A DNA stretch of 64,000 bases from Gemmatimonadales bacterium (GTDB lineage Bacteria > Gemmatimonadota > Gemmatimonadetes > Gemmatimonadales > GWC2-71-9). Each line of letters begins with the position of its first letter. The stretch's first letter is position 1. The position numbers and the translations under genes were made by a program. Below the pieces are notes generated by a model that made no database searches, was not told where the DNA came from, and saw nothing but the letters and a program-made list of their open reading frames with translations. Positions 8,652 to 56,122 of this stretch are shown here, piece by piece. Location of the stretch: assembly GCA_035491895.1 (NCBI GenBank), contig DATJJY010000094.1:33025-97024 (forward strand). Reading direction: 5' to 3'.

Positions 8652-9347
8652 TCAGCGGTCGTAGCGATCGTGGTGGCGCACCCAGCTCTGCGTGGCCTCG
8701 GGATCCTCGTCGCGCCCTTTGGGCACGAGATCGAGGATCTGGTACGTCCCGTTGATCATATCGATGCCGCGCGCGTACGTGGAATAGGTCCGGAACACCG
8801 TGCCGCTCGAGTCCTTCGTGAAGACGCTCAGGCCTTCGCGGTCGCCCATGCCGGGAACCACGGTCCCGAAGTTGTAGACCGGCAGCCCGCTGTCGGCCGG
8901 TGTGAAGGAAACGCGATAGTCGTAGTTGAACGAAGTGTTGCCCGAAGAAAGCCACTTGAACTTCCACCCCATGCGCTGCTGAAACGCCGCGATCTTGGCG
9001 CGGGGCGCGCGGGAGATGACGACGAACGACACGTCGCGCTGGCCGAGGTGCGCCATCATGCCGTCGTAGTGATCCGCCCAGAAGGAGCAGTGCGGGCAGC
9101 CGGCTTCGTCCGCGGGATTGAACATGAAGTGGTAGACAACGAGCTGGCTCTTCCCGGCGAAGAGATCGCTCAACGATTCCGGGCCGTTCGGGCCTTCGAA
9201 GACATAGGATTTCCCGACCTTCTCCCAGGGGAGCGCGCGGCGCTCTCGGCTCAGCGCGTCGCGCGCCCTGGTGAATTCCTTCTCCTTCTTGAGCAGTGCC
9301 GCGCGGGCGGCTTGCCACTGGTCGGGGGACACGATGGGATGCGACAT
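8652..9347 (-). CDS. DUF899 thioredoxin-like protein
   Basis: 231 aa. N-terminus MSHPIVSPDQWQAARAALLKKEKEFTRARDALSRERRALPW and ...VVYHFMF...CPHCSF are typical of the DUF899 family. Confidence 0.88.
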   Translation of the reverse strand: MSHPIVSPDQWQAARAALLKKEKEFTRARDALSRERRALPWEKVGKSYVFEGPNGPESLSDLFAGKSQLVVYHFMFNPADEAGCPHCSFWADHYDGMMAHLGQRDVSFVVISRAPRAKIAAFQQRMGWKFKWLSSGNTSFNYDYRVSFTPADSGLPVYNFGTVVPGMGDREGLSVFTKDSSGTVFRTYSTYARGIDMINGTYQILDLVPKGRDEDPEATQSWVRHHDRYDR

Positions 9348-9420
9348 ACGGTTTCTCCGTGAATGCGGGGTGGCGCTGGAGTGGTCGGGCTGCTAATATT
9401 CTACCATTCGGTTGAATGAT

Positions 9421-9765
9421 ATGGCAACCGCCACCCGACGCAATCGGTCGCTCGACCGGGTCTATGGCGCGATCGCGGATCCCACGCGGCGCGCGATGCT
9501 GGCCGTCCTGGCCGGCGGCGACGTCACCGTCGGCACCCTCGCCGGCCGTTTCCCCATCACCTTCAATGGTGCCTCCAAACACGTGAAGGTGCTGGAACGG
9601 GCCGGCCTCGTGACCCGTCGCGTCCGGGGCCGCGAGCACTGGCTGCGGCTCGAGCCCCGCCCGCTGCTCGACGCCGCCCGCTGGATCGAGCACTACCGCG
9701 CGTTCTGGGACACGCGACTGGCCGCGCTCGAGACGTTGCTGGTGCGGCACCATAACCGCGCTTGA
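9421..9765 (+). CDS. ArsR/SmtB-family transcriptional regulator
   Basis: Winged-HTH core: YGAIADPTRRAMLAVLAGGDVTVGTLAGRFPITFNGASKHVKVLERAGLVTRR. The ATG at 9421 is preferred over the TTG at 9412. Paired with an SRPBCC gene, a common arrangement. Confidence 0.9.
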   Translation: MATATRRNRSLDRVYGAIADPTRRAMLAVLAGGDVTVGTLAGRFPITFNGASKHVKVLERAGLVTRRVRGREHWLRLEPRPLLDAARWIEHYRAFWDTRLAALETLLVRHHNRA

Positions 9766-9876: not shown

Positions 9877-9903
9877 AATCAACGCGCCGCATCTGGGGGG
9901 TTG

Positions 9904-10332
9904 ATGACCGTTGATCCTGTTCCCGGTTCCCTCGTGGTGCGGCGCACCATCCCCGTGCCACGCGAGGAAGTCTTCGCCGCCTGGCTCGATCCGGAGACCC
10001 TCCCAACCTGGATGTGTCCCGGCGGGGGCCGGACCACGGCGGAGCTCGACCCCAAGGTCGGCGGGTCGTTCCGGATCGTGATGCATCATGGGAGCGAAGC
10101 GACCGAACACACCGGCACGTACCTCGTGATCGAGCCGCCCAGCCGGTTGTCGTTCACGTGGATCTCCAGCTACACCGATATGCTGCCGAGCGTGGTGACC
10201 GTCGAGTTCCACACGCGGGGCGACGGCACCGAAGTCGTCCTGACGCACGAGCGGCTCCCGGCTCGGCACGTGGACGCACACAAGAAGGGATGGGGAGAGA
10301 TTCTCGCCACGCTCGAGATAGCCCTGCGGTGA
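9904..10332 (+). CDS. SRPBCC/AHSA1-like (Aha1 domain) protein
   Basis: 142 aa. VVRRTIPVPREEVFAAWLDPETLPTWMCP... and ...RLSFTW... are typical of activator-of-Hsp90-ATPase-homolog-like SRPBCC proteins found next to ArsR regulators. Confidence 0.88.
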   Translation: MTVDPVPGSLVVRRTIPVPREEVFAAWLDPETLPTWMCPGGGRTTAELDPKVGGSFRIVMHHGSEATEHTGTYLVIEPPSRLSFTWISSYTDMLPSVVTVEFHTRGDGTEVVLTHERLPARHVDAHKKGWGEILATLEIALR

Positions 10333-26521: not shown

Positions 26522-27781
26522 TCAGCCGCGCTTCAAGGACTCGGCGCGCTCGATCAGGAGCGTCCGCTCGCGGGCGTTGCGCGTGAGCCCGGCCGCCCGC
26601 TCCAGCTCCGCACGCGCCTCCTCCGAGCGACCCAGTTTCGCGAGAAAGTCGGCGCGCACCGCCGGCAGCAGGTAGTACTCGCGCATCGCCGGCTCATCCC
26701 GCAGGGGATCGACGATCTCCAGTCCCGCCGCGGGCCCGAACGCCATCGCGTAGGCGACGCCGCGGTTCAGCTCGACCACCGGCGAGGGCGTCAGCTGGGC
26801 AAGGGCATCGTACAGCGCCGTGATGCGGGTCCAGTCGGTTTCCTCAGGGCTGGTGGCGCGGGCGTGGCAGGCGGCGATGGCCGCCTGCACCGTGTAGGGA
26901 CCGTACGCGCCGCCGAGCGATTCGGCACGCTCGAGTGCCGCCAGCCCGCGGCGGATCAACAGCTGGTCCCAGCGGGCGCGATCCTGATCGAGCAGCAGAA
27001 TCGGCTCGCCGCTCGGGGACAGGCGCGCCCGGAGCCGTGAGCTCTGGATCTCGAGCAGGGCGACGAGGCCGTGCACTTCGGGCTCCTGCGGCATGAGCTC
27101 GGCCAGTACGCGGCCTAGCCGTACGGCATCCTCGCACAGCGCCGGTCGGGCCCAGTCATCCCCCGCCGTCGCCGAGTAGCCTTCGTTGAAGACGAGGTAA
27201 ATCACCGCGAGCACCGACGACAGCCGGGCTGCGCGGTCGTCACCGCGCGGCACCTCGAAGGGGACGTGGGCTTCCCGCAGCGTCCGTTTCGCCCGCACGA
27301 TGCGCTGGGCGATCGTCGCCTCGGGAACGAGAAAGGCGCGTGCGATCTCGTCGGTCGTGAGGCCGCCGAGGAGTCGGAGGGTGAGTGCCACCCGCGCCTC
27401 GGGCGAGAGCACCGGGTGGCAGGTGGTAAACACGAGGCGCAGGATGTCGTCGCCGAAATCGTCGTCCAAGAGGTCAAGGTCGGGGGCGGTACGCTCCTGC
27501 TCCGCGGCGAGCTCGTAGGTCAGGCCGGCGTGTTTGGCATCGAGCATCTTGCGGCGTCGCAGTAGATCGATGGCGCGATGCTTGGCCGCGGCCATGAGCC
27601 AGGCTCCCGGGTTGTCCGGAACCCCTGACTCGGGCCACCGCTCGAGCGCCGCGACCAGCGCGTCCTGCGCGAGGTCTTCGGCGAGACCGACATCCTTCAC
27701 CAGGCGCGCGAGTCCACCGATCAGTCTGGCGGATTCGATCCGCCAGACTGCCTCGATGGCGCGATGCGCTTCGGATGACAT
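26522..27781 (-). CDS. ECF sigma factor with long C-terminal TPR-like extension (COG4941 / ECF42-like)
   Basis: The start at MSSEAHRAIEAVWRIESARLIGGLARL overlaps the upstream YCII stop by 1 nt. Region 2: LAQDALVAALERW...PGAWLMAAAKHRAIDLLRR. Region 4: LGGLTTDEIARAFLVPEATIAQRIVRAKR. The ~230-aa helical C-terminal extension is present and no anti-sigma gene is adjacent. Confidence 0.9.
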   Translation of the reverse strand: MSSEAHRAIEAVWRIESARLIGGLARLVKDVGLAEDLAQDALVAALERWPESGVPDNPGAWLMAAAKHRAIDLLRRRKMLDAKHAGLTYELAAEQERTAPDLDLLDDDFGDDILRLVFTTCHPVLSPEARVALTLRLLGGLTTDEIARAFLVPEATIAQRIVRAKRTLREAHVPFEVPRGDDRAARLSSVLAVIYLVFNEGYSATAGDDWARPALCEDAVRLGRVLAELMPQEPEVHGLVALLEIQSSRLRARLSPSGEPILLLDQDRARWDQLLIRRGLAALERAESLGGAYGPYTVQAAIAACHARATSPEETDWTRITALYDALAQLTPSPVVELNRGVAYAMAFGPAAGLEIVDPLRDEPAMREYYLLPAVRADFLAKLGRSEEARAELERAAGLTRNARERTLLIERAESLKRG

Positions 27782-28134
27782 CAGGCCGGAGAATTCACCG
27801 GCGCTTCGTACAACTGGCGTAGCTCGCACTCTCCTTCACCGGTGAAGGTGAGGAATCGCCGCACCAGCTCGACCGCATCCTCCTTCGACGCTGCATTGAG
27901 GATGGCGAATCCGCCGACCACTTCCTTCGCTTCCGTGAACGGTCCGTCGGTCACCGTCACCTTCCCCTTCGCGAGCCGAATGCGCGCGCCCAGCGCACTG
28001 GGCAGGCATCCTTCGGTGGAGACGAGCTCGCCCGCTTTCATCGACTCCTCGATGTAGCGGCCCATCCGGTCCATCTCCTCCTGCGTGGGTGGAGCGTTGC
28101 GCTCCGCCGTCTTGTAAATCGAGAGGAATCGCAT
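27781..28134 (-). CDS. YCII-related (DGPF-motif) protein
   Basis: 117 aa from MRFLSIYK... Carries the TVTDGPFTEAKEVVGGF motif. The upstream part of the 289-aa track ORF is spurious. Confidence 0.88.
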   Translation of the reverse strand: MRFLSIYKTAERNAPPTQEEMDRMGRYIEESMKAGELVSTEGCLPSALGARIRLAKGKVTVTDGPFTEAKEVVGGFAILNAASKEDAVELVRRFLTFTGEGECELRQLYEAPVNSPA

Positions 28135-28154: not shown

Positions 28155-28574
28155 TTAGCGTTGCTTGGATGCCTGAGCGCGCAGCCGGGCTTCCTGATCG
28201 CGCAGTTCCGGCGTGAGATTGGGGCCGAAGTCGTCCGCCTCGAACACCTGGCGGATCTCGATCACCGTGCCGCCGTCGAACGGGGCCCGCTTCATCCAGG
28301 CGATCGCCTCGTCCTTGTTCTTGACCTGAATCAGCCAGAATCCGGCGATCAGCTCCTTGGATTCGGTGAACGGCCCGTCGGTGACGGTCGTCCTGCCGCC
28401 CGAGAATTTGATGCGCGCCCCTTTCGAGGTGGCGTGCAACCCCTCGCCGGCGAGCATCACGCCGGCCTTCACCATCTCTTCGTTGAACTTGCCCATCTTG
28501 CTCAGGATCTCCTGGTCGGGGAGCACCCCCGCCTCGGAATCCTTGTTCGCTGGGACAATCACCATGAACCTCAT
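28155..28574 (-). CDS. YCII-related (DGPF-motif) protein
   Basis: 139 aa from MRFMVIVPANK... after an AAGGAG RBS. Carries the TVTDGPFTESKELIAGF motif. Confidence 0.88.
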   Translation of the reverse strand: MRFMVIVPANKDSEAGVLPDQEILSKMGKFNEEMVKAGVMLAGEGLHATSKGARIKFSGGRTTVTDGPFTESKELIAGFWLIQVKNKDEAIAWMKRAPFDGGTVIEIRQVFEADDFGPNLTPELRDQEARLRAQASKQR

Positions 28575-28681
28575 AGTCACTCCTTGCGTGTGTGAGCGCT
28601 TTGCAATCGTCTCTACCCCTGCGACGAATGAAAGGCTGGGCGATCGACATGCTTTTAAGTGCTTGATTCCATGTGCGATGG

Positions 28682-28846: not shown

Positions 28847-28867
28847 TTCGAGGTGAAAGGAGAGTGC

Positions 28868-29980
28868 ATGAGCAGCGTTCGCGTTCTCGTCGGCACCCGC
28901 AAGGGTGCTTTTATCCTGACCTCGGACGGCAAGCGCCAGAAATGGGACGTGGCGGGGCCGCACTTCGCCGGGTGGGAGATCTACCACGTCAAAGGGTCGC
29001 CCGTCGACAAGAACCGGCTTTACGCGTCGCAATCCTCCGGGTGGTTCGGCCAGCAGATCCAGCGATCCAATGACGCCGGCAAGACGTGGGAGCCGGTGGG
29101 GAACAAGTTCGTCTACGAGGGCGTCCCCGGTACGCATCAGTGGTACGACGGCACGCCGCATCCCTGGGAGTTCAAGCGCGTGTGGCACCTCGAGCCGTCG
29201 CTCGACGACCCCGACGCCGTGTACGCCGGCGTGGAAGACGCCGCGTTGTTCCACACGACGGACGGCGGGCAGAGCTGGGCGGAGCTGCCGGGCCTGCGCG
29301 GGCACGGGTCCGGGCCCCACTGGCAGCCCGGCGCCGGCGGGATGTGTCTCCACACGATTCTCATCGATCCGGGCAATCCGAAGCGCATGTTCATCGCGAT
29401 CTCGGCGGCGGGGGCGTTCCGCACCGACGACGCCGGGCGCAGCTGGCGGCCGATCAACCGCGGTCTCAAGTCCCAGGGCATTCCCGATCCCGAGGCCGAG
29501 GTCGGGCACTGCGTGCACCGCATCGCACAGCACCGCTCGCGCCCCGACGTGCTCTTCATGCAGAAGCACTGGGACGTCATGCGCTCCGACGACGCCGGCG
29601 ACACGTGGCGCGAGGTGAGCGGCAATCTCCCCACCGACTTCGGGTTCCCGATCGACGTGCACGCGCATGAGCCGGAGACGATCTACGTCGTCCCGATCAC
29701 GAGCGATTCCTACCACTATCCGCCCGACGGCAAACTGCGCGTCTATCGCAGCCGCACCGGCGGCAACGAATGGGAAGCGCTGACCAAGGGACTGCCGCAG
29801 CGCGACTGCTACGTGAACGTGCTGCGCGACGCGATGGCGGTGGATGCGCTCGACCATTGCGGGATCTACTTCGGCACGACGGGCGGCCAGGTATACGTCT
29901 CGGCCGATGCCGGCGACAACTGGACCGCGATCGTGCACGACCTCCCCGCGGTGCTGTCGGTCGAGGTGCAGACGCTGTGA
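28868..29980 (+). CDS. Asp-box (BNR) beta-propeller protein, sialidase-fold-like, no signal peptide seen
   Basis: ATG at 28868 after an AAGGAG RBS. Five SxDxGxTW-type Asp-boxes: [34 protein letters not shown] and SADAGDNW. Confidence 0.88.
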
Positions 29981-30276
29981 TGGTCCGCGTCGCGCTTCCG
30001 GCCCACCTCAAGACGCTGGCGAGCGTGTCGGACGAAGTGGAGCTGCAGGTGGCGGCGCCGGTGACGCAGGGCAGGGTGCTCGATGCCCTCGAAGCCCGCT
30101 ATCCAATGCTGCGCGGGGCGATCCGCGACCACGTCACGCTCGAGCGCCGGCCGTTCGTGCGCTTCTTCGCCTGCGCGCGGGACCTGTCGCACGAACGGCC
30201 CGACGCCCCGCTCCCCGAGGCGGTCCAGTCGGGGACCGAGCCGTTTCTCGTCGTGGGAGCGATGGCGGGAGGGTAG
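29980..30276 (+). CDS. MoaD/ThiS-like ubiquitin-fold (beta-grasp) protein ending in Gly-Gly
   Basis: 98 aa. TGATG overlap with the upstream gene. [14 protein letters not shown]...[12 protein letters not shown]...[10 protein letters not shown] has MoaD-like length, pattern and C-terminal GG. Confidence 0.8.
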
Positions 30277-34706: not shown

Positions 34707-36125
34707 CTAGACCGCGCGCTGCTTCCAGCGCCCGCGCCGGAACAGCAGCACGCTCACGAGGGCGAGGGACGAGTACCCGATCGTGATTGCCAGGAAGGCC
34801 CCGAAGGGCCCCAGCCGCAGCACGCGCGCCAGCACGTAGGCGAGCGGAATCTCCCAAAGCCAGAAGCAGGCGAGGTTGATCCACGTCGGCGTCCAGGTGT
34901 CGCCCGCGCCGTTGAACGCGGTGGTCAGCACCATGCCCAGCGCGTAGAACACGAAGCCGTAGCTCATCGTGCGCAGCGCGAGGGCGCCGATCGGGGCGGC
35001 GGCGGCATCCTGCGTGAACAGGCCGACGATCGGCTGGGCGAGGGCGATGAATGCCAGTCCCACGACGCCGAGCACCACCATGTTGTACCGGCCGGCGATC
35101 CACACGGCACGCTCGGCGCGATCGGGGTCCTTGGCCCCGAGTGATTGACCCACCATCGTCGCCGCGGCGTTCGACAGCCCCCAGGACGGGAGGAGACAGA
35201 AGATCACCAACCGGATGGCGATCGTGTACCCGGCCAGCGCCGCGCTCCCGAACGTCGAGATGATGCGCACGATCCCGATGTAGCTCGCCGTGCCCACCAG
35301 CACCTGGAACGTCCCCGAGCCGGAGAGCCGGACCAGGTGGGCCATCAGCGCGGGCCGCAGCGCGATGTGGGGTCGGCGCACGGTGACCCGCGCATCGCCG
35401 CGACGCAGCCGGTACAGCTGGTACAGCACCCCTGAGCCGCGCCCGATCGTCGTGGCGATCGCGGCGCCCGTGACTCCCAAACGGGGGAAGGGGCCGAGGC
35501 CGAAGATCAGACACGGCCCCAGCAGGATGTTGATCGCGTTCGCGAACCAGAGGACCCGCATCGCGATCGCCGCGTCGCCTGCGCCGCGGAAGATCGCGTT
35601 GATGAGAAACAGCAGGAGCACCGTGGCGCTCCCGCCCAGCATCGTGCGGGTGTATCCGGAGCCGATCGCCGTGACCGCTGGTGAGGCGCCCATCAGGGCG
35701 AGGAGTCGCGGGGCGAGTGTAACGCCAAGAACCGCGACCGAGGCCGCGACCACGAGCCCCAGCGCGATGCCCTGGACGGCCGCTTCGGCCGCCGCGTCGG
35801 GGCGCTTTTCGCCGATGCGGCGCGCCACCACCGCCGCCACTCCGATCGACAGCCCCATCGCGGCGGTGTAGACGAGCGTCAGCATCGACTCCGTCAGGCC
35901 GACGGTCGCCACCGCGTCCGGACCGAGGTGCGACACCCAGAACACGTCCACCACTGCGAAGACCGACTCCATCGCCATCTCGAGCACCATCGGGATGGCG
36001 AGCAGGATGATCGCCCGGTTGAGCGAGCCCGCGGTGTAGTCGTGGGGGACGCCGCGCACCGCGTCCTTGACCACGGACCACCATGTGTCCCGGGCTGGCA
36101 ATGTGCTGGTCAACTCCGGATTCAT
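34707..36125 (-). CDS. MATE-family efflux transporter (tandem paralog)
   Basis: The start was moved to MNPELTS (cat 36123-36125). ...LAIPMVLEMAMESVFAVVDVFWVSHLG... The stop lies 1 nt before the next MATE start. Confidence 0.9.
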   Translation of the reverse strand: MNPELTSTLPARDTWWSVVKDAVRGVPHDYTAGSLNRAIILLAIPMVLEMAMESVFAVVDVFWVSHLGPDAVATVGLTESMLTLVYTAAMGLSIGVAAVVARRIGEKRPDAAAEAAVQGIALGLVVAASVAVLGVTLAPRLLALMGASPAVTAIGSGYTRTMLGGSATVLLLFLINAIFRGAGDAAIAMRVLWFANAINILLGPCLIFGLGPFPRLGVTGAAIATTIGRGSGVLYQLYRLRRGDARVTVRRPHIALRPALMAHLVRLSGSGTFQVLVGTASYIGIVRIISTFGSAALAGYTIAIRLVIFCLLPSWGLSNAAATMVGQSLGAKDPDRAERAVWIAGRYNMVVLGVVGLAFIALAQPIVGLFTQDAAAAPIGALALRTMSYGFVFYALGMVLTTAFNGAGDTWTPTWINLACFWLWEIPLAYVLARVLRLGPFGAFLAITIGYSSLALVSVLLFRRGRWKQRAV

Positions 36126-37003
36126 TTCGGCACCCGACGCGCGAGGATGACGCCGGCGAGGCAGAGCACCCCGCCGAATACGGCAACGAGCTGCGGAACT
36201 TCTCCCAGGACGAGCCAGCTCATCCCGATCGTGATCGGCGGGACGAGATACGCGGTGGCGGCGAGTCGGCTCGCCGTACCGCGCGCGAGCGCGTACGCCC
36301 ATGTCGTGAACGCGACGGAGGTTGGAAATACACCCAGGTAGCCCATCCACGCGAGGTCCACGGGTGATGCGGTGCGGACGTCGTGCAGCAGCCGTGGCGC
36401 GTAGGGTAGACAACAGACCACCCCGATGACGCAGCAGGTCCACGTCACCTGCAACGCGCTGAGACGGGACAGAACCGGTTTCTGCGCCACGACGCCTCCG
36501 GCAGACGAAGTCGTGGCGACGACGCACAGCAGCACGCCCCAGAGCGGCGCATTCCCCGACCTGGTAGCGATACCGATGCAGATCACTCCGGCGAACGCCA
36601 CCGCGCCGCCCACGAGCAAGCCGGAGGTCAGCCGCTCCTTCAGGAACAGCGCGGCCAGCGCCATGATCATGAGCGGTGCGATATTCACGACCATCGCCGC
36701 CGTGCCGGCGTCGACCACGCGCTCGGCGCTGTTGAGCGTGACGTTGTACAGCCCGAACCACAGAAAGCCGGCGATGCAGAGCAGTCCCACTTCGCGCCAC
36801 GTTGGTCGGATGGCGCCGCGGCGCAGCAGGAGGATCCCCAGCAGAGTGCTGCCGATCAGGAGGCGGCCCAGCGCCAGGGCACCGGGTGCGAGCGTGCGCG
36901 TCGCGGCGCGGATGCCGACGTAGGCCGAGGACCAGAGACAGATCGAGACGAGCGCGGCCGCGAGTGGCCGCCAATCCTTCGTTTCGCGAGCGGGGGCGGT
37001 CAT
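36122..37003 (-). CDS. EamA/DMT-family transporter
   Basis: The start was moved to MTAPARE (cat 37001-37003). Ten TM segments forming two EamA halves. ATGA overlap with the MATE gene. Confidence 0.88.
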   Translation of the reverse strand: MTAPARETKDWRPLAAALVSICLWSSAYVGIRAATRTLAPGALALGRLLIGSTLLGILLLRRGAIRPTWREVGLLCIAGFLWFGLYNVTLNSAERVVDAGTAAMVVNIAPLMIMALAALFLKERLTSGLLVGGAVAFAGVICIGIATRSGNAPLWGVLLCVVATTSSAGGVVAQKPVLSRLSALQVTWTCCVIGVVCCLPYAPRLLHDVRTASPVDLAWMGYLGVFPTSVAFTTWAYALARGTASRLAATAYLVPPITIGMSWLVLGEVPQLVAVFGGVLCLAGVILARRVPK

Positions 37004-37103: not shown

Positions 37104-37370
37104 ATGTGCAGAAACATCAAGACGCTCGCCAATTTCGAGCCGCCGGCGACGGACGACGAGATTCAAGCATCGGCGATACAGTTCGTTCGCAAGTTGAGCG
37201 GGTCGACGCATCCATCGCGCGCCAACGAGGCGGCGTTCAACACCGCAATCGCGGAAGTCACCGCGTCGGCGCGACGGCTGATCGACGCCCTGACGACCAC
37301 CGCTCCGCCCCGCAATCGTGAGGAAGAGGCGAGAAAGGCGCGGGAGCGGGCTGCGAAGCGGTTCGGCTGA
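37104..37370 (+). CDS. DUF2277-family protein
   Basis: MCRNIKTLANFEPPATDDEIQASAIQFVRKLSG matches the conserved DUF2277 N-terminus. Confidence 0.85.
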   Translation: MCRNIKTLANFEPPATDDEIQASAIQFVRKLSGSTHPSRANEAAFNTAIAEVTASARRLIDALTTTAPPRNREEEARKARERAAKRFG

Positions 37371-41756: not shown

Positions 41757-42386
41757 CTACGGCGAGCGCCCGTAGCGCAGCAGGACGTTGCCCGACGGGA
41801 ACGGCTTGGCTTCGAGCAGCTCCAGTCCCACGCTCTTCGGCACCCCGGCAAGGAGCGACCGGCCGTCCCCCAGAAGCAGGGGGCTGACGATGAACTGATA
41901 CTCGTCGATCAGCCCGTGCTGCGTCAGCTGTGAAGCGATGGAGCCGCTCCCGAAGATCAACATGCCACCGCCGCCCCCCGGCTGTTGTTTCATCTTCTCG
42001 ATCGCCCTCGGGTCGAGCTCGCGCAGCAGGCTCGAGTTGCTCCACGTCACGTCCTTGCGCGTTCTGGAGAACACGATCTTCTTCGCCGCATTGATCCAGA
42101 TCGCCATGCCGCGCATTTCCACGGACCGTTCCGGACCATGGGGACTCGGCGCGGTCCCGGAATTGTCGAGTGCGTGCGGCCAGAACGATTCGAATTGCTC
42201 ATAGGTGCGACGGCCGAAGAGAATCGTGCCCGGGTCGGGCCCGTTCCCCATGGCCGCCTGGCGATCGGCATCGGCCATGATCGAGCGGTCGAGCTCGGGG
42301 TCTTGGACCACCCAACCGAGGCCTCCGTCCGGAGCAGCGAAGTACCCGTCCGCACTCACATGATTGAACGCCACGATCCGTCGCAT
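41757..42386 (-). CDS. Dihydrofolate-reductase-like (RibD C-terminal domain) protein
   Basis: MRRIVAFNHVSADGYFAAPDG...ILFGRRTYE...MLIFGSGSIASQL...DEYQFIVSPLLLG. Confidence 0.88.
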   Translation of the reverse strand: MRRIVAFNHVSADGYFAAPDGGLGWVVQDPELDRSIMADADRQAAMGNGPDPGTILFGRRTYEQFESFWPHALDNSGTAPSPHGPERSVEMRGMAIWINAAKKIVFSRTRKDVTWSNSSLLRELDPRAIEKMKQQPGGGGGMLIFGSGSIASQLTQHGLIDEYQFIVSPLLLGDGRSLLAGVPKSVGLELLEAKPFPSGNVLLRYGRSP

Positions 42387-42399
42387 GCGTCACTCCTTC

Positions 42400-42762
42400 C
42401 TAGTCTCGGGACACAATCGATTGTCCCACGGGGCGAATTTCGATGGCGCCACCGCCCACGACGATCGGGCAGGAGCGCGACAGCTCGACCGCCTGTGCCA
42501 GGTCGCGCGCCTCGACGACGATGAACCCCAGGACCATGTCCTTGGCTTCGGCGTAGGGGCCGTCGCTGAGGACGCCGTCCTTGCCGCGCACCATATGCCC
42601 CGTGGGCTCGAGCGGGAGTCCCGGGCTCTTCAGGTGACCCCTCGTCTCGAGGTCCTTGAACCAGGCCAGCATCGCCTGGATGCTCTGTTGCGCGCGCTCC
42701 GGTCCCATCGCCTCGCGCTGCTCGGCGGCCGACGCTCGAAACAAGTAGACGAATTGGCTCAT
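42400..42762 (-). CDS. YCII-related protein
   Basis: The start was moved to MSQFVYLFRAS after a GAGGAG RBS. Carries the ...LSDGPYAEAKDMVLGF... motif. Confidence 0.85.
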   Translation of the reverse strand: MSQFVYLFRASAAEQREAMGPERAQQSIQAMLAWFKDLETRGHLKSPGLPLEPTGHMVRGKDGVLSDGPYAEAKDMVLGFIVVEARDLAQAVELSRSCPIVVGGGAIEIRPVGQSIVSRD

Positions 42763-42909
42763 TGTGATGGTCTCCTCATGAGCTCCCCAGTCGGGCCCGT
42801 GTGTTGCTACACGCTTGACGAACGAGCCGTCCTCAGCCGGACAATGGTATGGCACCGGTGGCGGCCCCTTCATTAGAGGCGCATCTTACTGAGCGTTCTC
42901 CCCCATGCA

Positions 42910-52474: not shown

Positions 52475-53233
52475 TTACGAGGCGCGCCCGATCTGATGGA
52501 CTCCTGCGAATCGTGCGAAGCGAACGGGCGTCGTGGACCTGCCGCGCGCCGCCAGGCGCAGCTCGCTGAAGTGGGCCCCCCATCCGACGGAGAACGTTCG
52601 CAACAGGTTCGTTCCCACGATCCCGTCGATGTCCGTGGTGCGCAGCGCGCGCTCGAGGGAGGCCGGCAGTTGACCGCACTCGAGGCTGACCGGCTGATCG
52701 CCGAACACGAGCGGCACCTGTCGCAGCTCCGTCGCGAACTCACCGAGTCCCGGATACGAGTCCCGCGCCACCCCGACGCATGGGTGGGCCCTGGTGTCGA
52801 CGTCCCGCAGGCACGACAACGTGGCGCCCGTGTGAAACAGCACCCGCCGCTTCCCACCTGCCAGCTCGACCTCCACCACGGGCATTCCCGCGACGGTCTC
52901 CAGCCGTGCGCCGCGAGCGTGGGGCCGAGCGGCGTCGTCGTCGAAGACGACTCGGCCGGCTTCGGGATCGATGGCGACGGCCGAGCAGCCGAGCACGTCG
53001 CTGCCGAGCACTACGTCGATGTTGATGCCGATGACCTCGCTCCATTGCTCCACGGTCATGCCGTGGTAACGCTGGAGTGCGGGAATCTCCCGATCGAGGA
53101 ATTCGAAGGACGGTCGACGTCCGATCGAGACCGGGCATCCGGTATTCAACAGCAGCGCCTGGGCGTCGTGGTAAACGACGAGATGCCCCTGGCGCAGCTC
53201 CATTGGGTATCGACGCACGAATGTCCTCAGCAT
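52475..53233 (-). CDS. Hypothetical protein, two retropepsin-like half-domains with non-canonical active-site positions
   Basis: Internal repeat: ALLLNTGCPVSIG...IDVVLGSDVL and RVLFHTGATLSCL...IDGIVGTNLL. The start is uncertain (53233 MLRTF... or 53203 MELRQ...). Confidence 0.65.
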   Translation of the reverse strand: MLRTFVRRYPMELRQGHLVVYHDAQALLLNTGCPVSIGRRPSFEFLDREIPALQRYHGMTVEQWSEVIGINIDVVLGSDVLGCSAVAIDPEAGRVVFDDDAARPHARGARLETVAGMPVVEVELAGGKRRVLFHTGATLSCLRDVDTRAHPCVGVARDSYPGLGEFATELRQVPLVFGDQPVSLECGQLPASLERALRTTDIDGIVGTNLLRTFSVGWGAHFSELRLAARGRSTTPVRFARFAGVHQIGRAS

Positions 53234-53363
53234 GAGTTGCCGGGCGCGGGTTCGCAGGCAAATACAGGTCCAAGGAAGAGTGCGGCAGCAGCCGTATGGT
53301 AACTCAGTGGATGTAGGGTTTTTTCTGACGAAGCGGGCTGAAGGGGCTATCTTACCCTGCCGC

Positions 53364-54593
53364 ATGAGCGAATCCTCCACGCCGCATGGGGCTCGGGCCC
53401 AGGCCGCGGCAGTGATCACCAGGCTTCCCTGTCAGCGACACCTGTTCGACATCCCCGAGGACATCGCTTACCTGAACTGCGCCTACATGTCACCGCTGTT
53501 GCGCCGAGTCACCGAGGCTGGACAACGCGCGGTGGCGCGCAAGGCACACCCGTGGGACATCACGCCGGCGGACTTCTTCTCTGATGTCGCTGTTGCGCGC
53601 CGCCGCTTCGCGCAGCTGCTCGGCGGTGGCACCGGCGAAGACGACATCGCGATCGTGCCGGCCGTCAGCTACGGGATGGCTGTGGCCTGCGCCAACCTGC
53701 CGCTCGCGCGTGGCCAGACGGTGCTGTTGCTCGACGAGGAGTTTCCCTCGGTCATCCTGCCCTGGCGGGAGCGGGCGCGGGAGGCGGGGGCTCGGGCGGT
53801 GCTGCTGCCGCGGCCCGCGGACGACGACTGGACCAGCGTGATTCTCGAGGCGATCGATGAGCGCACGGCGATCGCCGCGCTCCCCGCGCTCCATTGGACC
53901 GACGGCGCGCTCATCGACCTCCCGCGGGTGGCGGCGCGATTGCACGACGTCGGCGCGGCGCTGGCGGTGGACGCGACGCAGTCACTCGGCGCCATGCCGT
54001 TCCCGATGTCCGAGGTGCGTCCCGACTTTCTCGTCGCGGCGTCATACAAGTGGCTGCTCGGTCCGTACAGTCTGGGATTCCTCTATGTTGCCCCGCAGCG
54101 CCAGAATGGTCGGCCGATTGAGCATAACTGGATCACGCGGGTGGGCTCGCAGGATTTCACCGCGCTCACGAACTACGCCGGCGAGCTGGGGTTCCAGCCG
54201 GGGGCGCGTCGCTTCGATGTGGGGGAGACTCCGAACTTCGCATTGATGCCTATGGCGATCGCCGCGCTGGACCAAATCCTGGAGTGGGGGGTGCCGCACA
54301 TTGCCGAGACCATCGCCTCACTGACCGGCTCGCTGGTGGCGCGCGCCGCCGAGCATGGTCTCGAGGCGGTGCCGGCCGTGCGCCGCGCCCCCCACTATGT
54401 CGGCCTCCGCTTTCCGGCCGGAGTGCCTCCTGAGCTAGCGCAGCGACTGGCAGCGGAGCGCGTGTTCGTGAGCGTGCGCGGTCGCGGGGCGCTGCGAGTG
54501 ACGCCGCATGTCTACAATACTGAGGCCGAGATCGACCGCCTGGTCGCGGCGATCGCGGCGGCTTCCTCCTCGACTGGCAGTGACGTTCTATGA
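53364..54593 (+). CDS. Class-V aminotransferase-fold PLP enzyme
   Basis: The start was moved to MSESSTPHG. ...YLNCAYMSP..., ...AVDATQSLG... and ...AASYKWLLGP (PLP lysine). Confidence 0.88.
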   Translation: MSESSTPHGARAQAAAVITRLPCQRHLFDIPEDIAYLNCAYMSPLLRRVTEAGQRAVARKAHPWDITPADFFSDVAVARRRFAQLLGGGTGEDDIAIVPAVSYGMAVACANLPLARGQTVLLLDEEFPSVILPWRERAREAGARAVLLPRPADDDWTSVILEAIDERTAIAALPALHWTDGALIDLPRVAARLHDVGAALAVDATQSLGAMPFPMSEVRPDFLVAASYKWLLGPYSLGFLYVAPQRQNGRPIEHNWITRVGSQDFTALTNYAGELGFQPGARRFDVGETPNFALMPMAIAALDQILEWGVPHIAETIASLTGSLVARAAEHGLEAVPAVRRAPHYVGLRFPAGVPPELAQRLAAERVFVSVRGRGALRVTPHVYNTEAEIDRLVAAIAAASSSTGSDVL

Positions 54594-56122
54594 CGACGGT
54601 CGTGGTTGTAGGCGCCGGCATCAACGGGTTGGTCGCGGCGCACTATCTCCGGCGCGGCGGCTGCAACGTCACACTGCTGGAGCGCGCCGAGTGGGTCGGC
54701 GGCGCGTGTGTCTCCGACGTCGCCACCGTCGATGGGCGCTCGCAGCGCTACGCTGTCGGGGCGTCCGTCCTCGGTCTCATGCCCGATTTCATTTATCGGG
54801 AGACGGGGCTCGCCGACCGGCTCGAGACGTTCGTCCCCGATCACGCCAAGCGGATCTACTTCCCGGATCCGCAGGCCAGCGCCTGGATCCATCGCGACCC
54901 CGGCGAGCTGGACCGCGAGCTCCACGAGCGTTGGGGGGAGCGCGGCGACGTCGCCGCATTCCGGCACGACGAAGCCAAGGTGGTGGCGTTTCTGCAGGAG
55001 GGATACCGCAACGCCGTGGCGCCGACCCTCGCCGCCGCGCGCGACCGCCTGGGGAAGAACCTCGTCCGGCTCTGGATTTCCGGGAGCGCCCGCGATCTGC
55101 TGCGCCACTATTTCACCGCCGACCACACCAGGATCTACATGGCGATGACGGTGACGGAGAGCGGACCGGTTTCGCTGCGGGATCGGTATTCCGCCTTCAC
55201 GTTGCCGCTGATGGACTCGGGGTCGGTGTTCGACGGCTACTACGGATTCGTGAAGGACGGGATCTGGCGGGTGACCGAGGAGCTGGCCCAGATCAACCGG
55301 GAGCTGGGCGTCGACATCCGACTCGCCGCCCGGGTGGAGCAGGTGGACCCGAGCATCGGGAAGCTGCGCTACGCCCAGGCGGGGAAAACGGCGCAGCTGC
55401 CGTTCGATCATCTGGTGCTGGCCACCGACCCGCTCACCGCCGCTCGCGTCATCGGGGATAGTGCGTTCACCGCGCGCGTCGAGGCGAAGCGCTTTCTCGG
55501 CTCGAGCGGCAAGCTCACCCTCCTGTTCCAGCGCCCGGCAGTCTGGAAGGAGGGCACCGCCGGCCCCCACAGCGAGGCGGCGTTCCGGTTCATCTTCGCC
55601 GTCGAATCACTGGAGCAATTCGAGCGCGCGACGCTCCGTCCGGTGTCGGACGGCGTCGATTACGAGCCGGGATACATCCAGATCTATCCTGAAGGGGCGG
55701 CGATGCGGCAGCTCGGTCTCACGGAGCCCTTGGATCGTTTGACGCTGTTCTTCAAGAACCTGGCGCTCGACCGTGAAGGAGCGGTCCTGCCCGAAGTCGC
55801 CGAGGCGGTCAAGGAGCAGCTGTTTCGTCACCTCGCGAACCCGGAGGACTGCGTGTGGAGCCGGTTGCTCACCCCGCGGGACCTGCAACAGCTCTTTCTG
55901 TTTCCGGGCGGCAACCTGGACCACACGATGCTGGTGGGGGGACAGACGTTCTTCGATCGCCAGTTCGCGGCGGACCCCGCCCGGAATTTCTACCGCTTCG
56001 GCGCCTGGTCGAACGTGGACTACTGCGGCGCGGGGGCATACCCCTGCGGCTCGATCGCCGGGACGCCTGGCTACATGTGCGCCCGGCAGCTGCTGGCCGC
56101 CTTGCCTCCGCATGATATCTGA
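54590..56122 (+). CDS. FAD/NAD(P)-dependent oxidoreductase (phytoene-desaturase-like)
   Basis: ATGA overlap upstream. Dinucleotide fold VVVVGAGINGLVAAHYLRRGGCNVTLLER...GG. Confidence 0.88.
   Translation: MTTVVVVGAGINGLVAAHYLRRGGCNVTLLERAEWVGGACVSDVATVDGRSQRYAVGASVLGLMPDFIYRETGLADRLETFVPDHAKRIYFPDPQASAWIHRDPGELDRELHERWGERGDVAAFRHDEAKVVAFLQEGYRNAVAPTLAAARDRLGKNLVRLWISGSARDLLRHYFTADHTRIYMAMTVTESGPVSLRDRYSAFTLPLMDSGSVFDGYYGFVKDGIWRVTEELAQINRELGVDIRLAARVEQVDPSIGKLRYAQAGKTAQLPFDHLVLATDPLTAARVIGDSAFTARVEAKRFLGSSGKLTLLFQRPAVWKEGTAGPHSEAAFRFIFAVESLEQFERATLRPVSDGVDYEPGYIQIYPEGAAMRQLGLTEPLDRLTLFFKNLALDREGAVLPEVAEAVKEQLFRHLANPEDCVWSRLLTPRDLQQLFLFPGGNLDHTMLVGGQTFFDRQFAADPARNFYRFGAWSNVDYCGAGAYPCGSIAGTPGYMCARQLLAALPPHDI

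Follow-up and report, generated by a model that had tools for sequence, protein, structure and literature searches.

Introduction

Bacterial sulfur carriers are small proteins with a beta-grasp fold and a flexible Gly-Gly C-terminus, and MoaD-MoaE, ThiS-ThiG, CysO-CysM and CysO-BexX are described pairs in which such a carrier works with a dedicated larger partner. In the first three of these pairs, the carrier docks on the synthase and its Gly-Gly tail enters the active site. The MoaX fusion of M. tuberculosis is cleaved after the Gly-Gly, and the actinomycete MoeZ illustrates that one E1 can serve several carriers. The carrier gene adjoins that of the partner and is sometimes fused to it, as known for ThiS-ThiG and MoaD-MoaE (PMC1779556). 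Here, we describe a two-gene unit in a 64 kb stretch of Gemmatimonadales DNA (67% GC; referred to as the window, with all its coordinates given on its own numbering), in which the gene for a 370 aa Asp-box propeller overlaps the gene for a 98 aa protein ending in Gly-Gly. It shares with the sulfur-carrier/synthase pairs a small, predicted beta-grasp protein with a flexible Gly-Gly end, encoded beside a larger partner. Unlike in those pairs, the partner is a predicted seven-bladed Asp-box propeller, no pathway genes lie alongside, and a thiocarboxylate is only proposed. To our knowledge, this propeller fold is not known as a carrier partner.

Two further groups of described systems bear on the locus. 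The small protein is like SAMP1, Urm1 and TtuB in predicted fold, Gly-Gly end and stress setting, and the pair is also found in archaea. However, these modifiers need a known E1 (UbaA, Uba4 or TtuC) and act on tRNA thiolation enzymes or on many targets, whereas the pair has one fixed propeller partner and no E1 nearby. The surroundings of the pair recall the ECF42/YCII (DGPF) modules of Streptomyces venezuelae, Pseudomonas putida (ECF-10) and Sinorhizobium meliloti (RpoE10), with which the window shares an ECF42 sigma factor with DUF6596, two YCII genes and a TGTCGA...CGTC/CGAC promoter. No description of the pair was found in two beta-grasp surveys, an Asp-box survey, the ECF literature or the literature on the P. 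aeruginosa locus tags; the main ECF42 and ECF-10 papers lay beyond that scope and may mention it. The component proteins are of known kinds; the type of partner is new.

A translationally coupled gene pair

The pair comprises the following features, all on the forward strand:

28858–28862 (+), AGGAG Shine-Dalgarno sequence of the propeller gene, 6 nt ahead of the ATG at 28868
28868–29980 (+), propeller coding sequence, 370 aa by translation, cytoplasmic Asp-box (BNR) protein, predicted to be seven-bladed
29963–29967 (+), GAGGT, Shine-Dalgarno-like motif within the conserved VEVQ codons of the propeller, probable ribosome-binding site of the small gene
29978–29982 (+), TGATG stop/start overlap (TGA 29978–29980, ATG 29980–29982, one base in common)
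29980–30276 (+), small-protein coding sequence, 98 aa by translation, modelled with AlphaFold2 (AF2) as a MoaD/CysO/SAMP-class beta-grasp (ubiquitin-like) protein
30268–30273 (+), GGA GGG, terminal Gly-Gly codons, followed by the stop TAG at 30274–30276

An earlier note on this DNA, made from the sequence alone, had described a 370 aa propeller without a signal peptide whose stop codon overlaps (TGATG) the start of a 98 aa protein ending GAMAGG, and the frames and sequences are as it claimed. Direct reading of the propeller sequence found no hydrophobic N-terminal signal segment. Both frames have coding-type composition, with a GC content at third codon positions (GC3) of 0.90 in each, and GGAG-type motifs occur at the matching place 5′ of the propeller gene in most related loci. 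The two genes are translationally coupled, and the small protein ends in ...VVGAMAGG.

Conservation and spread of the pair

Each of the two proteins has at least 8000 relatives among the matches listed. A scan of one genome per species returned at least 600 matches, of which 598 were confirmed. The propellers of the 80 best are 79–86% identical to the window propeller, which is itself 100% identical to a protein of a Gemmatimonadales metagenome-assembled genome (MAG). Hosts of this tight family include Acidobacteriota (among them the isolate Acidipila rosea DSM 103428), Gemmatimonadota, Planctomycetota, Chloroflexota and Verrucomicrobiota, with further members in Actinomycetota, Methylomirabilota, Firmicutes, Hydrogenedentota, Eremiobacterota and Hyphomicrobium; most of these taxon labels are MAG labels. 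The small gene lies directly 3′ of the propeller gene in all loci with room downstream (79/79), which represent at least 10 phyla, and the two genes share a 4 nt ATGA overlap in 61 of the 79 orthologous loci. The same pairing was seen when the search was run outward from the small protein.

More distant relatives preserve the association in other arrangements. At 31–34% identity, the order is reversed: in Ralstonia solanacearum, Cupriavidus metallidurans CH34, Mitsuaria, Burkholderia stagnalis and Pseudomonas aeruginosa, the propeller gene immediately follows a MoaD/ThiS gene whose product ends ...ALSGG. The P. aeruginosa pair is PA1355/PA1356, and the propeller is PA1356, the N-terminal sequence of which, as printed in PMC6085387, matches. 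An archaeal subfamily from Thermoplasmatota (39% identity) likewise has a ThiS gene upstream of the propeller gene. The two proteins have also been fused in both orientations. Propeller-ubiquitin-like protein (Ubl) fusions with Gly-Gly at the free end are represented by P0143 and P0191 and by the frameshifted P0218, and ThiS-propeller fusions with an 8-residue linker by four archaeal sequences that are 69–76% identical to the query P0335. The earlier note had left conservation of the pairing to a neighbourhood check; with that check run, the pair is seen to be a strictly co-inherited unit across Bacteria and Archaea.

These observations bear directly on whether the adjacency could be due to chance, with the small protein being the cell's ordinary MoaD/ThiS and the propeller unrelated to it. 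The public labels would suit such a coincidence, as JGI and NCBI name the small protein a molybdopterin synthase sulfur carrier or a MoaD/ThiS family protein. Against it stand the 79/79 pairing, the occurrence of both gene orders, the fusions and the archaeal members, together with a sequence that is far from canonical MoaD, and neither molybdenum cofactor nor thiamine genes recur in any of the neighbourhoods. Chance adjacency is barely conceivable.

The tight family stands apart from its relatives. When the library was clustered at 50% identity, the family formed essentially one full-length cluster, and the next relatives were 55%, 47% and then 36–45% identical, with 1104 clusters at E < 1e-30. 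Recent horizontal transfer was considered as the cause of the high identity and rejected. The GC3 of the propeller gene, which ranges from 0.54 to 0.97, follows the GC content of the host locus (r = 0.88), and the median differences per site from the window gene are 0.57 at synonymous and 0.11 at non-synonymous sites. As GC3 follows host GC and synonymous sites are near saturation, the conservation reflects old purifying selection. The propeller is 80–86% identical across phyla. The host-like composition indicates that the genes are long resident, and recent spread cannot explain approximately 85% identity between phyla.

Some relatives and contexts were noted in passing. Stand-alone propellers at approximately 40% identity are found in Streptomyces, Fuscovulum and Rhodobacter, and some stand-alone relatives have tails of their own, ...AATIGG-stop or ...AVVGGVA-stop (L086 5773–7089; P0252), which may be coincidence. 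P0337 and the 704 aa P0259, propeller relatives at 36–44% identity, have N-terminal extensions in which no membrane segment was noticed; that of P0337 is without a Pfam match. The metagenomic propellers P0131 and P0132 contain exact internal duplications of 40–55 residues that are most likely assembly artefacts. An 81% identical pair is present in a 14.6 kb contig binned as Candidatus Saccharimonadales (L023, DATMNZ010000108.1); this would indicate carriage in the candidate phyla radiation if the binning is right, and a binning error is more likely. A 180 kb P. aeruginosa "plasmid" (L090, NZ_CP133752.1, pZYPA1927) bears PA1356 and its neighbours, rhtA and pmpM, which have the appearance of core genes of the chromosome, and may be a misassigned or chromosome-derived replicon.

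The propeller

A regular expression search of the translation located six Asp-boxes between 29066 and 29923 on the forward strand:

29066–29089 (+), Asp-box 1, SNDAGKTW, from residue 67
29255–29278 (+), Asp-box 2, TTDGGQSW, from residue 130
29423–29446 (+), Asp-box 3, TDDAGRSW, from residue 186
29585–29608 (+), Asp-box 4, SDDAGDTW, from residue 240
29750–29773 (+), Asp-box 5, SRTGGNEW, degenerate, from residue 295
29900–29923 (+), Asp-box 6, SADAGDNW, from residue 345

The earlier note had counted five boxes of the form SxDxGxTW. Five of the six do have the canonical Asp, but the remaining box is degenerate and only two fit the strict pattern. The spacing of approximately 55 residues fits one box per blade. 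This spacing, the arrangement of strands in the model and the similarity to the seven-bladed structure 3b7f together indicate that the propeller has seven blades.

Pfam matches to the propeller were to BNR (46 bits) and Sortilin-Vps10 (55 bits). PDB entry 3b7f, a structural-genomics entry titled "glycosyl hydrolase, BNR repeat", matches residues 4–366 with 33% identity (phmmer E 9.7e-69) and is also found by Foldseek (E 4e-23, target-normalised template modelling (TM) score 0.75). This Cupriavidus protein (Reut_B4987, YP_299179) has been described as seven-bladed with a function "not known" (PMC2716378). It is a true homologue and cytoplasmic, and its close relative in C. metallidurans has the MoaD-like gene directly upstream; it differs in being without an insertion and some invariant His and Cys of the window family, and was solved without a small partner. 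Farther Foldseek neighbours were GH74 double propellers, DAIP, Ycf48 and sortilin. Ycf48 and the Vps10 domain of sortilin belong to the same propeller class and, judging from the entry titles, bind peptide C-termini or tails at the propeller: the Ycf48 entry has a bound D1 peptide and the sortilin entries have neurotensin or progranulin tails. They differ from the window protein in being extracytoplasmic or lumenal, in having 10 or 7 blades and unrelated ligands, and in sharing only 12–15% sequence identity with it.

The propeller is rich in His (18) and Trp (14). Invariant His residues match the inner-strand position of five successive blades (H40, H107, H162, H217 and H265), and three of these (H162, H217 and H265) are retained in PA1356 and in the archaeal relative. 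Further invariant His, Cys and Trp lie in the long loops between blades, for example in QKHWDV, and the invariant Cys residues are C215, C314 and C331 in the propeller and C65 in the small protein. Propeller topology suggests that the invariant residues form one pocket on one face, round the axis of the propeller.

NCBI names the protein "exo-alpha-sialidase" or "sialidase family protein", and its Asp-boxes and structural likeness to GH74 propellers are what would be expected of a sialidase or glycoside hydrolase to which the small protein is an accessory. However, the Asp-box motif is common to many propellers that are not sialidases (PMC2716378) and thus does not define a sialidase. The protein has neither a signal peptide nor the RIP (FRIP) motif, and matches to the Pfam families BNR_2 (E 0.054) and BNR_3 (E 0.0038) fall far under the cut-offs. 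Sialidases have six blades rather than seven, and the closest solved structure is the one of function "not known" (both PMC2716378). Furthermore, GH74 enzymes need two tandem propellers, and no carbohydrate genes recur near the pair. The public "exo-alpha-sialidase" label is probably wrong. We regard a glycosidase activity as very unlikely, and this annotated role and chance adjacency are both essentially excluded.

A second public label, the JGI assignment to Ycf48/HCF136, was also rejected. The Pfam PSII_BNR score of 26.9 is under the cut-off of 27 and covers only residues 324–358, the NCBIfam Ycf48 score is 19.5 against a cut-off of 326, and the host lineages are, by name, non-phototrophs.

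The small Gly-Gly protein

The AF2 model of the small protein, built from an alignment of 37 orthologues, has a mean predicted local distance difference test (pLDDT) score of 87.7, and its last three residues alone are disordered, as expected of a flexible tail. The top Foldseek matches in the PDB were SAMP1, CysO (in complexes with BexX and CysM), a MoaD-related protein, human MOCS2A, Urm1, the Ahp1-Urm1 complex and MoaD in the MoeB-MoaD complex. Target TM scores of the leading matches were 0.73–0.84. For the top ten they were 0.74–0.84, with a root-mean-square deviation of approximately 2–2.8 Å; the exception to this TM range is 1v8c, a 165-residue two-domain MoaD-related chain. According to the model, the small protein has the beta-grasp fold of the MoaD/CysO/SAMP type, which agrees with the MoaD/ThiS-like character that the earlier note had given it; the absence of such a fold, which the note had listed as a refuting outcome, is not borne out.

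The sequence itself is less readily placed. The NCBIfam SAMP1 match is sub-threshold (E 0.015), and 25 of the 37 orthologues match ThiS (PF02597) weakly, with a best E of 0.003. The partners of distant propeller relatives do pass the Pfam ThiS threshold (27.4, 27.7 and 36.8 bits), and distant-family partners align to the window small-protein family at E 7.6e-4 and 2.5e-5. On the basis of the fold and these intermediate families, the small protein appears by sequence to be a divergent member of the MoaD/ThiS class.

The C-terminus is under selection for Gly-Gly followed by a stop. Seventy-two of 78 complete orthologues end precisely in ...AGG-stop, and the terminal Gly-Gly is retained in the 31% identity families. 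Three of the 78 carry 2 aa extensions past the Gly-Gly and two carry longer ones. If a free Gly-Gly is required, such tails would need processing. The extended ends include GGCF, GGAI and GGQI (L008, L026 and L031, respectively), a longer tail in L020 and a 16 aa tail in the archaeal L104. In a Terriglobia MAG (L076 11110–12867), the small gene has no stop after ...IAGG and continues into an AAA+ ATPase (Walker A GIPGCGKS); this single case, which may reflect a genuine fusion or an error in sequencing, was set aside.

Gene neighbourhoods

Upstream of the pair, in the opposite orientation, the window contains a group of genes with the following features:

28155–28577 (−), YCII-domain gene (Pfam YCII, 69 bits)
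27781–28131 (−), second YCII-domain gene (Pfam YCII, 45 bits)
26522–27829 (−), ECF42-type sigma factor with sigma2, sigma4 and a DUF6596 extension (Pfam Sigma70_r2, Sigma70_r4_2 and DUF6596, the last with 127 bits), start uncertain

Downstream of the pair is a GAF-HK-REC-HK kinase gene on the plus strand. Pfam thereby bore out the ECF42-type sigma, the two YCII genes and the HK-REC-HK kinase that the earlier note had named as neighbours. Its further statement that the window holds no E1, JAMM, molybdopterin or thiamine gene also stood: among approximately 50 window open reading frames (ORFs), Pfam found no ThiF/MoeB, JAMM, rhodanese, Moa or Thi gene, and six-frame regular expression searches of the window found neither the E1 signature DxDxVxxSNLxRQ nor the JAMM motif. 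The sole sulfur-related candidate in the window is a protein with a class-V aminotransferase fold, a family that includes cysteine desulfurases, at 53232–54593; it adjoins a flavin amine oxidase-like gene (53232–56122 for the two together) and, at 23 kb, is too far off to tie to the pair.

Beyond the window, the E1 signature was not found within approximately 10 kb of the pair in approximately 90 loci, and matches to a loose rhodanese expression were non-specific. The earlier note had treated the missing E1 as an oddity. None was seen near the pair at any locus, but, as such carriers can share an E1 encoded elsewhere, its absence nearby is a weaker sign of oddity than was implied. The sole JAMM/MPN+ protein in the approximately 90 loci (HSHPGFGVFLSDHD; L007 14353–15304, minus strand) is approximately 5 kb from the pair in an Acidobacteria MAG and, as a single case, was rejected as a partner. 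A defence system of the E1-E2-JAB or Bil kind was also rejected, as there was no PADLOC defence-system match and no E1 motif and only the one lone JAMM ORF.

These results also bear on whether the small protein is a modifier of the Urm1/SAMP/TtuB type, acting as a thiocarboxylate by E2/E3-free conjugation to target proteins or by cysteine persulfidation under oxidative stress, with the propeller as its main target, a target-selecting adaptor or a deconjugating partner. The appearance of SAMP1, Urm1 and the Ahp1-Urm1 complex among the top structural matches speaks for it, as do the invariant Cys in both proteins and stress-themed neighbours (ahpCF, DJ-1, VOC, DinB, DoxX and DUF899). Sampylation exists in archaea, where the pair also has members. 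However, no E1, E2 or JAB gene recurs, the single JAMM ORF is 5 kb off in one locus, PADLOC found no match, and strict one-to-one pairing with occasional fusion suits a dedicated partner better. We consider a general modifier unlikely.

To find recurrent neighbours, ORFs within 10 kb of the pair were clustered in 83 loci. The most frequent were a sigma-factor cluster (18/82 loci; largely ECF42, with DUF6596 checked in part) and YCII (15/82). Rarer neighbours were HxlR (8 loci), PhnB-like VOC (7 loci, immediately upstream and on the same strand), DoxX (7), ArsR (6), DinB (5) and SRPBCC/AHSA1 (5). Also present were generic families, among them ABC ATPases, histidine kinases and SDRs; histidine kinases occur in 9/82 loci at a median distance of approximately 4.8 kb, a generic pattern, and the downstream kinase of the window was rejected as a module member because it is not a conserved neighbour. 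Of the compact module proposed in the earlier note, the link to ECF42 and YCII is statistically real in a minority of genomes, but the kinase drops out and the unit is the two-gene pair.

Individual loci show how this company is arranged. A Chloroflexota locus has, on one strand, sigma-YCII-DUF1905-propeller-Ubl-YCII-YCII. The order in P. aeruginosa is YciI, DUF899, ECF42 sigma, MFS, VOC and YciI, followed divergently by the MoaD-like gene, the propeller gene and YbaK. The pair is accompanied by ahpCF in Mitsuaria, by DJ-1 and cysS in Burkholderia, and by DJ-1 and glyoxalases in a metagenome contig. In modest counts that are suggestive only, this company hints at oxidative, electrophile or thiol stress.

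A few adjacencies touch on cysteine and sulfur. A cysteinyl-tRNA synthetase gene is directly 3′ of the pair in two Thermoplasmatota loci (L102 7197–8420 and L103 1829–3052), which are probably one lineage, as their propeller P0434 is identical; cysS is just upstream in B. stagnalis (L092 3771–5168), and the stand-alone Rhodobacter homologue is divergent from egtB-egtD, for ergothioneine synthesis (L093 3592–5773). The cysS and egtBD cases are too few to serve as evidence, and we set this theme aside as anecdotal.

Elsewhere in the window are genes of kinds seen near the pair in other genomes, namely DUF899 (8652–9347), an ArsR-type helix-turn-helix gene (9412–9765) and AHSA1/SRPBCC (9901–10332). 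A third YCII gene (42400–42873) adjoins a RibD_C-like reductase gene (41757–42386). A DUF2277 gene is located 3′ of the pair both in the window, at a distance of 7 kb (37104–37370), and in an unrelated contig from a metagenome, at 1.8 kb (L099 9099–9368). The segment 39309–41735 contains an ATP-dependent DNA ligase gene and a convergent LigD primase-polymerase gene, a repair pair of the non-homologous end-joining type. One of two adjacent MatE transporters (34707–36974, minus strand) is a 755 aa ORF in which the MatE domains begin only at residue 328; either the protein is extended at its N-terminus by a long segment or the ORF was called too long.

The link to ECF42

An ECF42-type promoter motif is present between the divergent YCII operon and the pair:

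28623–28649 (−), ECF42-type promoter motif TGTCGATCGCCCAGCCTTTCATTCGTC, 46 nt upstream of the YCII start of the YCII-YCII-sigma operon, divergent from the pair

The same motif and divergent layout are found in P. aeruginosa between the YciI gene and PA1355 (L090, 4536, minus strand), and of the 22 YCII genes in related loci, 12 have the motif ahead of them. The motif is similar to TGTCGG-N17-CGTC, the form of the RpoE10 (ECF42)-dependent promoters in S. meliloti (PMC6180224). Directly upstream of the window pair there is no ECF42-type promoter of the form TGTCGA-N16/17-CGAC/CGTC, only the poor variant AGTCGG-N13-CGTC, and no sigma-70-like promoter was found there. In other genomes, the 250 nt preceding the propeller gene contain TGTCGAT-N16-TTCGAC on the same strand in 15/77 loci, when approximately one would be expected from the overall density of the motif. 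In 13 of these 15 loci, neither a sigma nor a YCII gene is close by.

Among 50 loci flanked by 5 kb or more on either side, 20 have a sigma or YCII gene beside the pair, or the motif; adjacency to ECF42, or probable control by it, is frequent. A sigma factor with a DUF6596/TPR extension and YCII adjoin the pair in the window, in the Chloroflexota locus and in P. aeruginosa. On these sequence grounds, it is plausible that ECF42 controls the pair in a considerable minority of lineages. Published targets of ECF42 are YCII, VOC-like and SRPBCC-like proteins (PMC6180224), and the propeller/Ubl pair is not mentioned among ECF42 targets in the literature covered, a scope outside which the main ECF42 paper lies. 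ECF42 sigma factors are thought to be regulated by protein interaction through their TPR domain (PMC8999054).

Possible function of the pair

Our proposal for the pair is that it is a carrier and acceptor/synthase unit, in which the Gly-Gly tail of the small protein, once activated in trans, is used by the propeller at its His-rich pocket. The two proteins would be co-produced by translational coupling as an obligate two-protein unit. The tail would first be adenylated and then converted to a thiocarboxylate by a housekeeping E1 of the MoeB/MoeZ/ThiF type encoded elsewhere. The small protein would dock on the propeller, with its flexible Gly-Gly tail entering the pocket of the His/Cys/Trp-rich axial face. 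The propeller would take the role of MoaE, ThiG, CysM or BexX, that is, of an acceptor or "synthase" that uses the activated C-terminus. The company of ECF42, YCII, VOC/PhnB-like, DJ-1/PfpI and DinB genes, and of DoxX, DUF899, ahpCF and cysS, suggests that the unit may respond to oxidative, electrophile or thiol stress. The scheme is supported by the predicted fold of the small protein, the strict pairing, the fusions, which follow a pattern known from ThiS-ThiG and MoaD-MoaE (PMC1779556), the selected Gly-Gly end, the very strong constraint on the propeller, its invariant His and Cys, the peptide tails bound by related Asp-box propellers and the ECF42 link. We regard this carrier and acceptor scheme as the likeliest of the explanations considered, although it stops short of being probable.

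Several findings weigh against the scheme. E1, rhodanese, cysteine desulfurase and JAMM genes do not recur as neighbours in the approximately 90 loci, and activation in trans is therefore an assumption. The Gly-Gly is internal in the archaeal ThiS-propeller fusions and in a few extended orthologues, which implies either that cleavage is needed or that a free carboxylate is not required. The C-terminal fusions are on contigs from assemblies rich in split genes, and the model of the P0143 fusion, used as a stand-in for the complex, has a mean pLDDT of 69.5 and a predicted TM score of 0.64, from which no tail position is readable. The window small protein scores only 13.1 bits (E 0.15) with Pfam ThiS (PF02597), under the cut-off of 22.5, and hhalign of the family profile with E. 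coli MoaD aligned 15 residues, in the N-terminal strand only. Finally, the propeller relative P0259 carries an N-terminal Ser/Thr kinase domain, confirmed with Pfam, an arrangement that suits a binding or sensor domain no less than an enzyme.

Some of these points would be accounted for if the two proteins formed a non-covalent regulatory or sensor complex, with the Gly-Gly tail plugging the propeller pocket and no adenylation or sulfur chemistry involved. The propeller would then be a sensor that binds a ligand or a protein and feeds stress signalling, possibly as the missing input to ECF42 sigma factors, which lack an anti-sigma factor and need their TPR extension. That no E1 or sulfur-transfer gene recurs nearby agrees with such a complex, fusion to a cytoplasmic kinase is a typical arrangement for a sensor domain, the structural neighbours sortilin, Ycf48 and DAIP are binders rather than enzymes, and the Gly-Gly is buried in the archaeal fusions. 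The linkage to ECF42, thought to be controlled by protein contact via its TPR domain (PMC8999054), would also be explained. However, the strict ...AGG-stop, retained in 31% identity families and in more than one domain of life, is a hallmark of C-terminal chemistry, approximately 60% of loci have no ECF42 link, and so extreme a conservation, in which many His, Cys and Trp are invariant, is more suggestive of an active site. A purely regulatory complex is the main rival and appears possible, if somewhat unlikely.

A bolder form of the carrier and acceptor scheme would make the pair an ancient thiocarboxylate Ubl system, common to Bacteria and Archaea and independent of E2 and E3, in which a metal- or redox-active propeller uses or receives the activated tail under oxidative or electrophile stress and which in many bacteria is the long-sought physiological output of, or even a sensing input to, the widespread ECF42 sigma factors. 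The tail would then be used, for example, for Urm1-like cysteine persulfidation or conjugation. We think it improbable that the whole of this extension is right. Were it so, the pair would represent a new carrier-partner class and a new stress pathway, present in P. aeruginosa as PA1355/PA1356.

Implications

Few non-universal proteins are conserved as strongly as the propeller, which shows approximately 85% identity between phyla and occurs in at least 598 species-representative genomes. Should the small protein prove to be a true carrier, its propeller would be a new kind of partner for the ubiquitin/MoaD superfamily, in Bacteria and Archaea alike. The poorly understood ECF42 regulon gains a new, specific and testable target, and P. 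aeruginosa, in which PA1355/PA1356 lie beside an ECF42 sigma gene and YciI genes, offers a tractable model.

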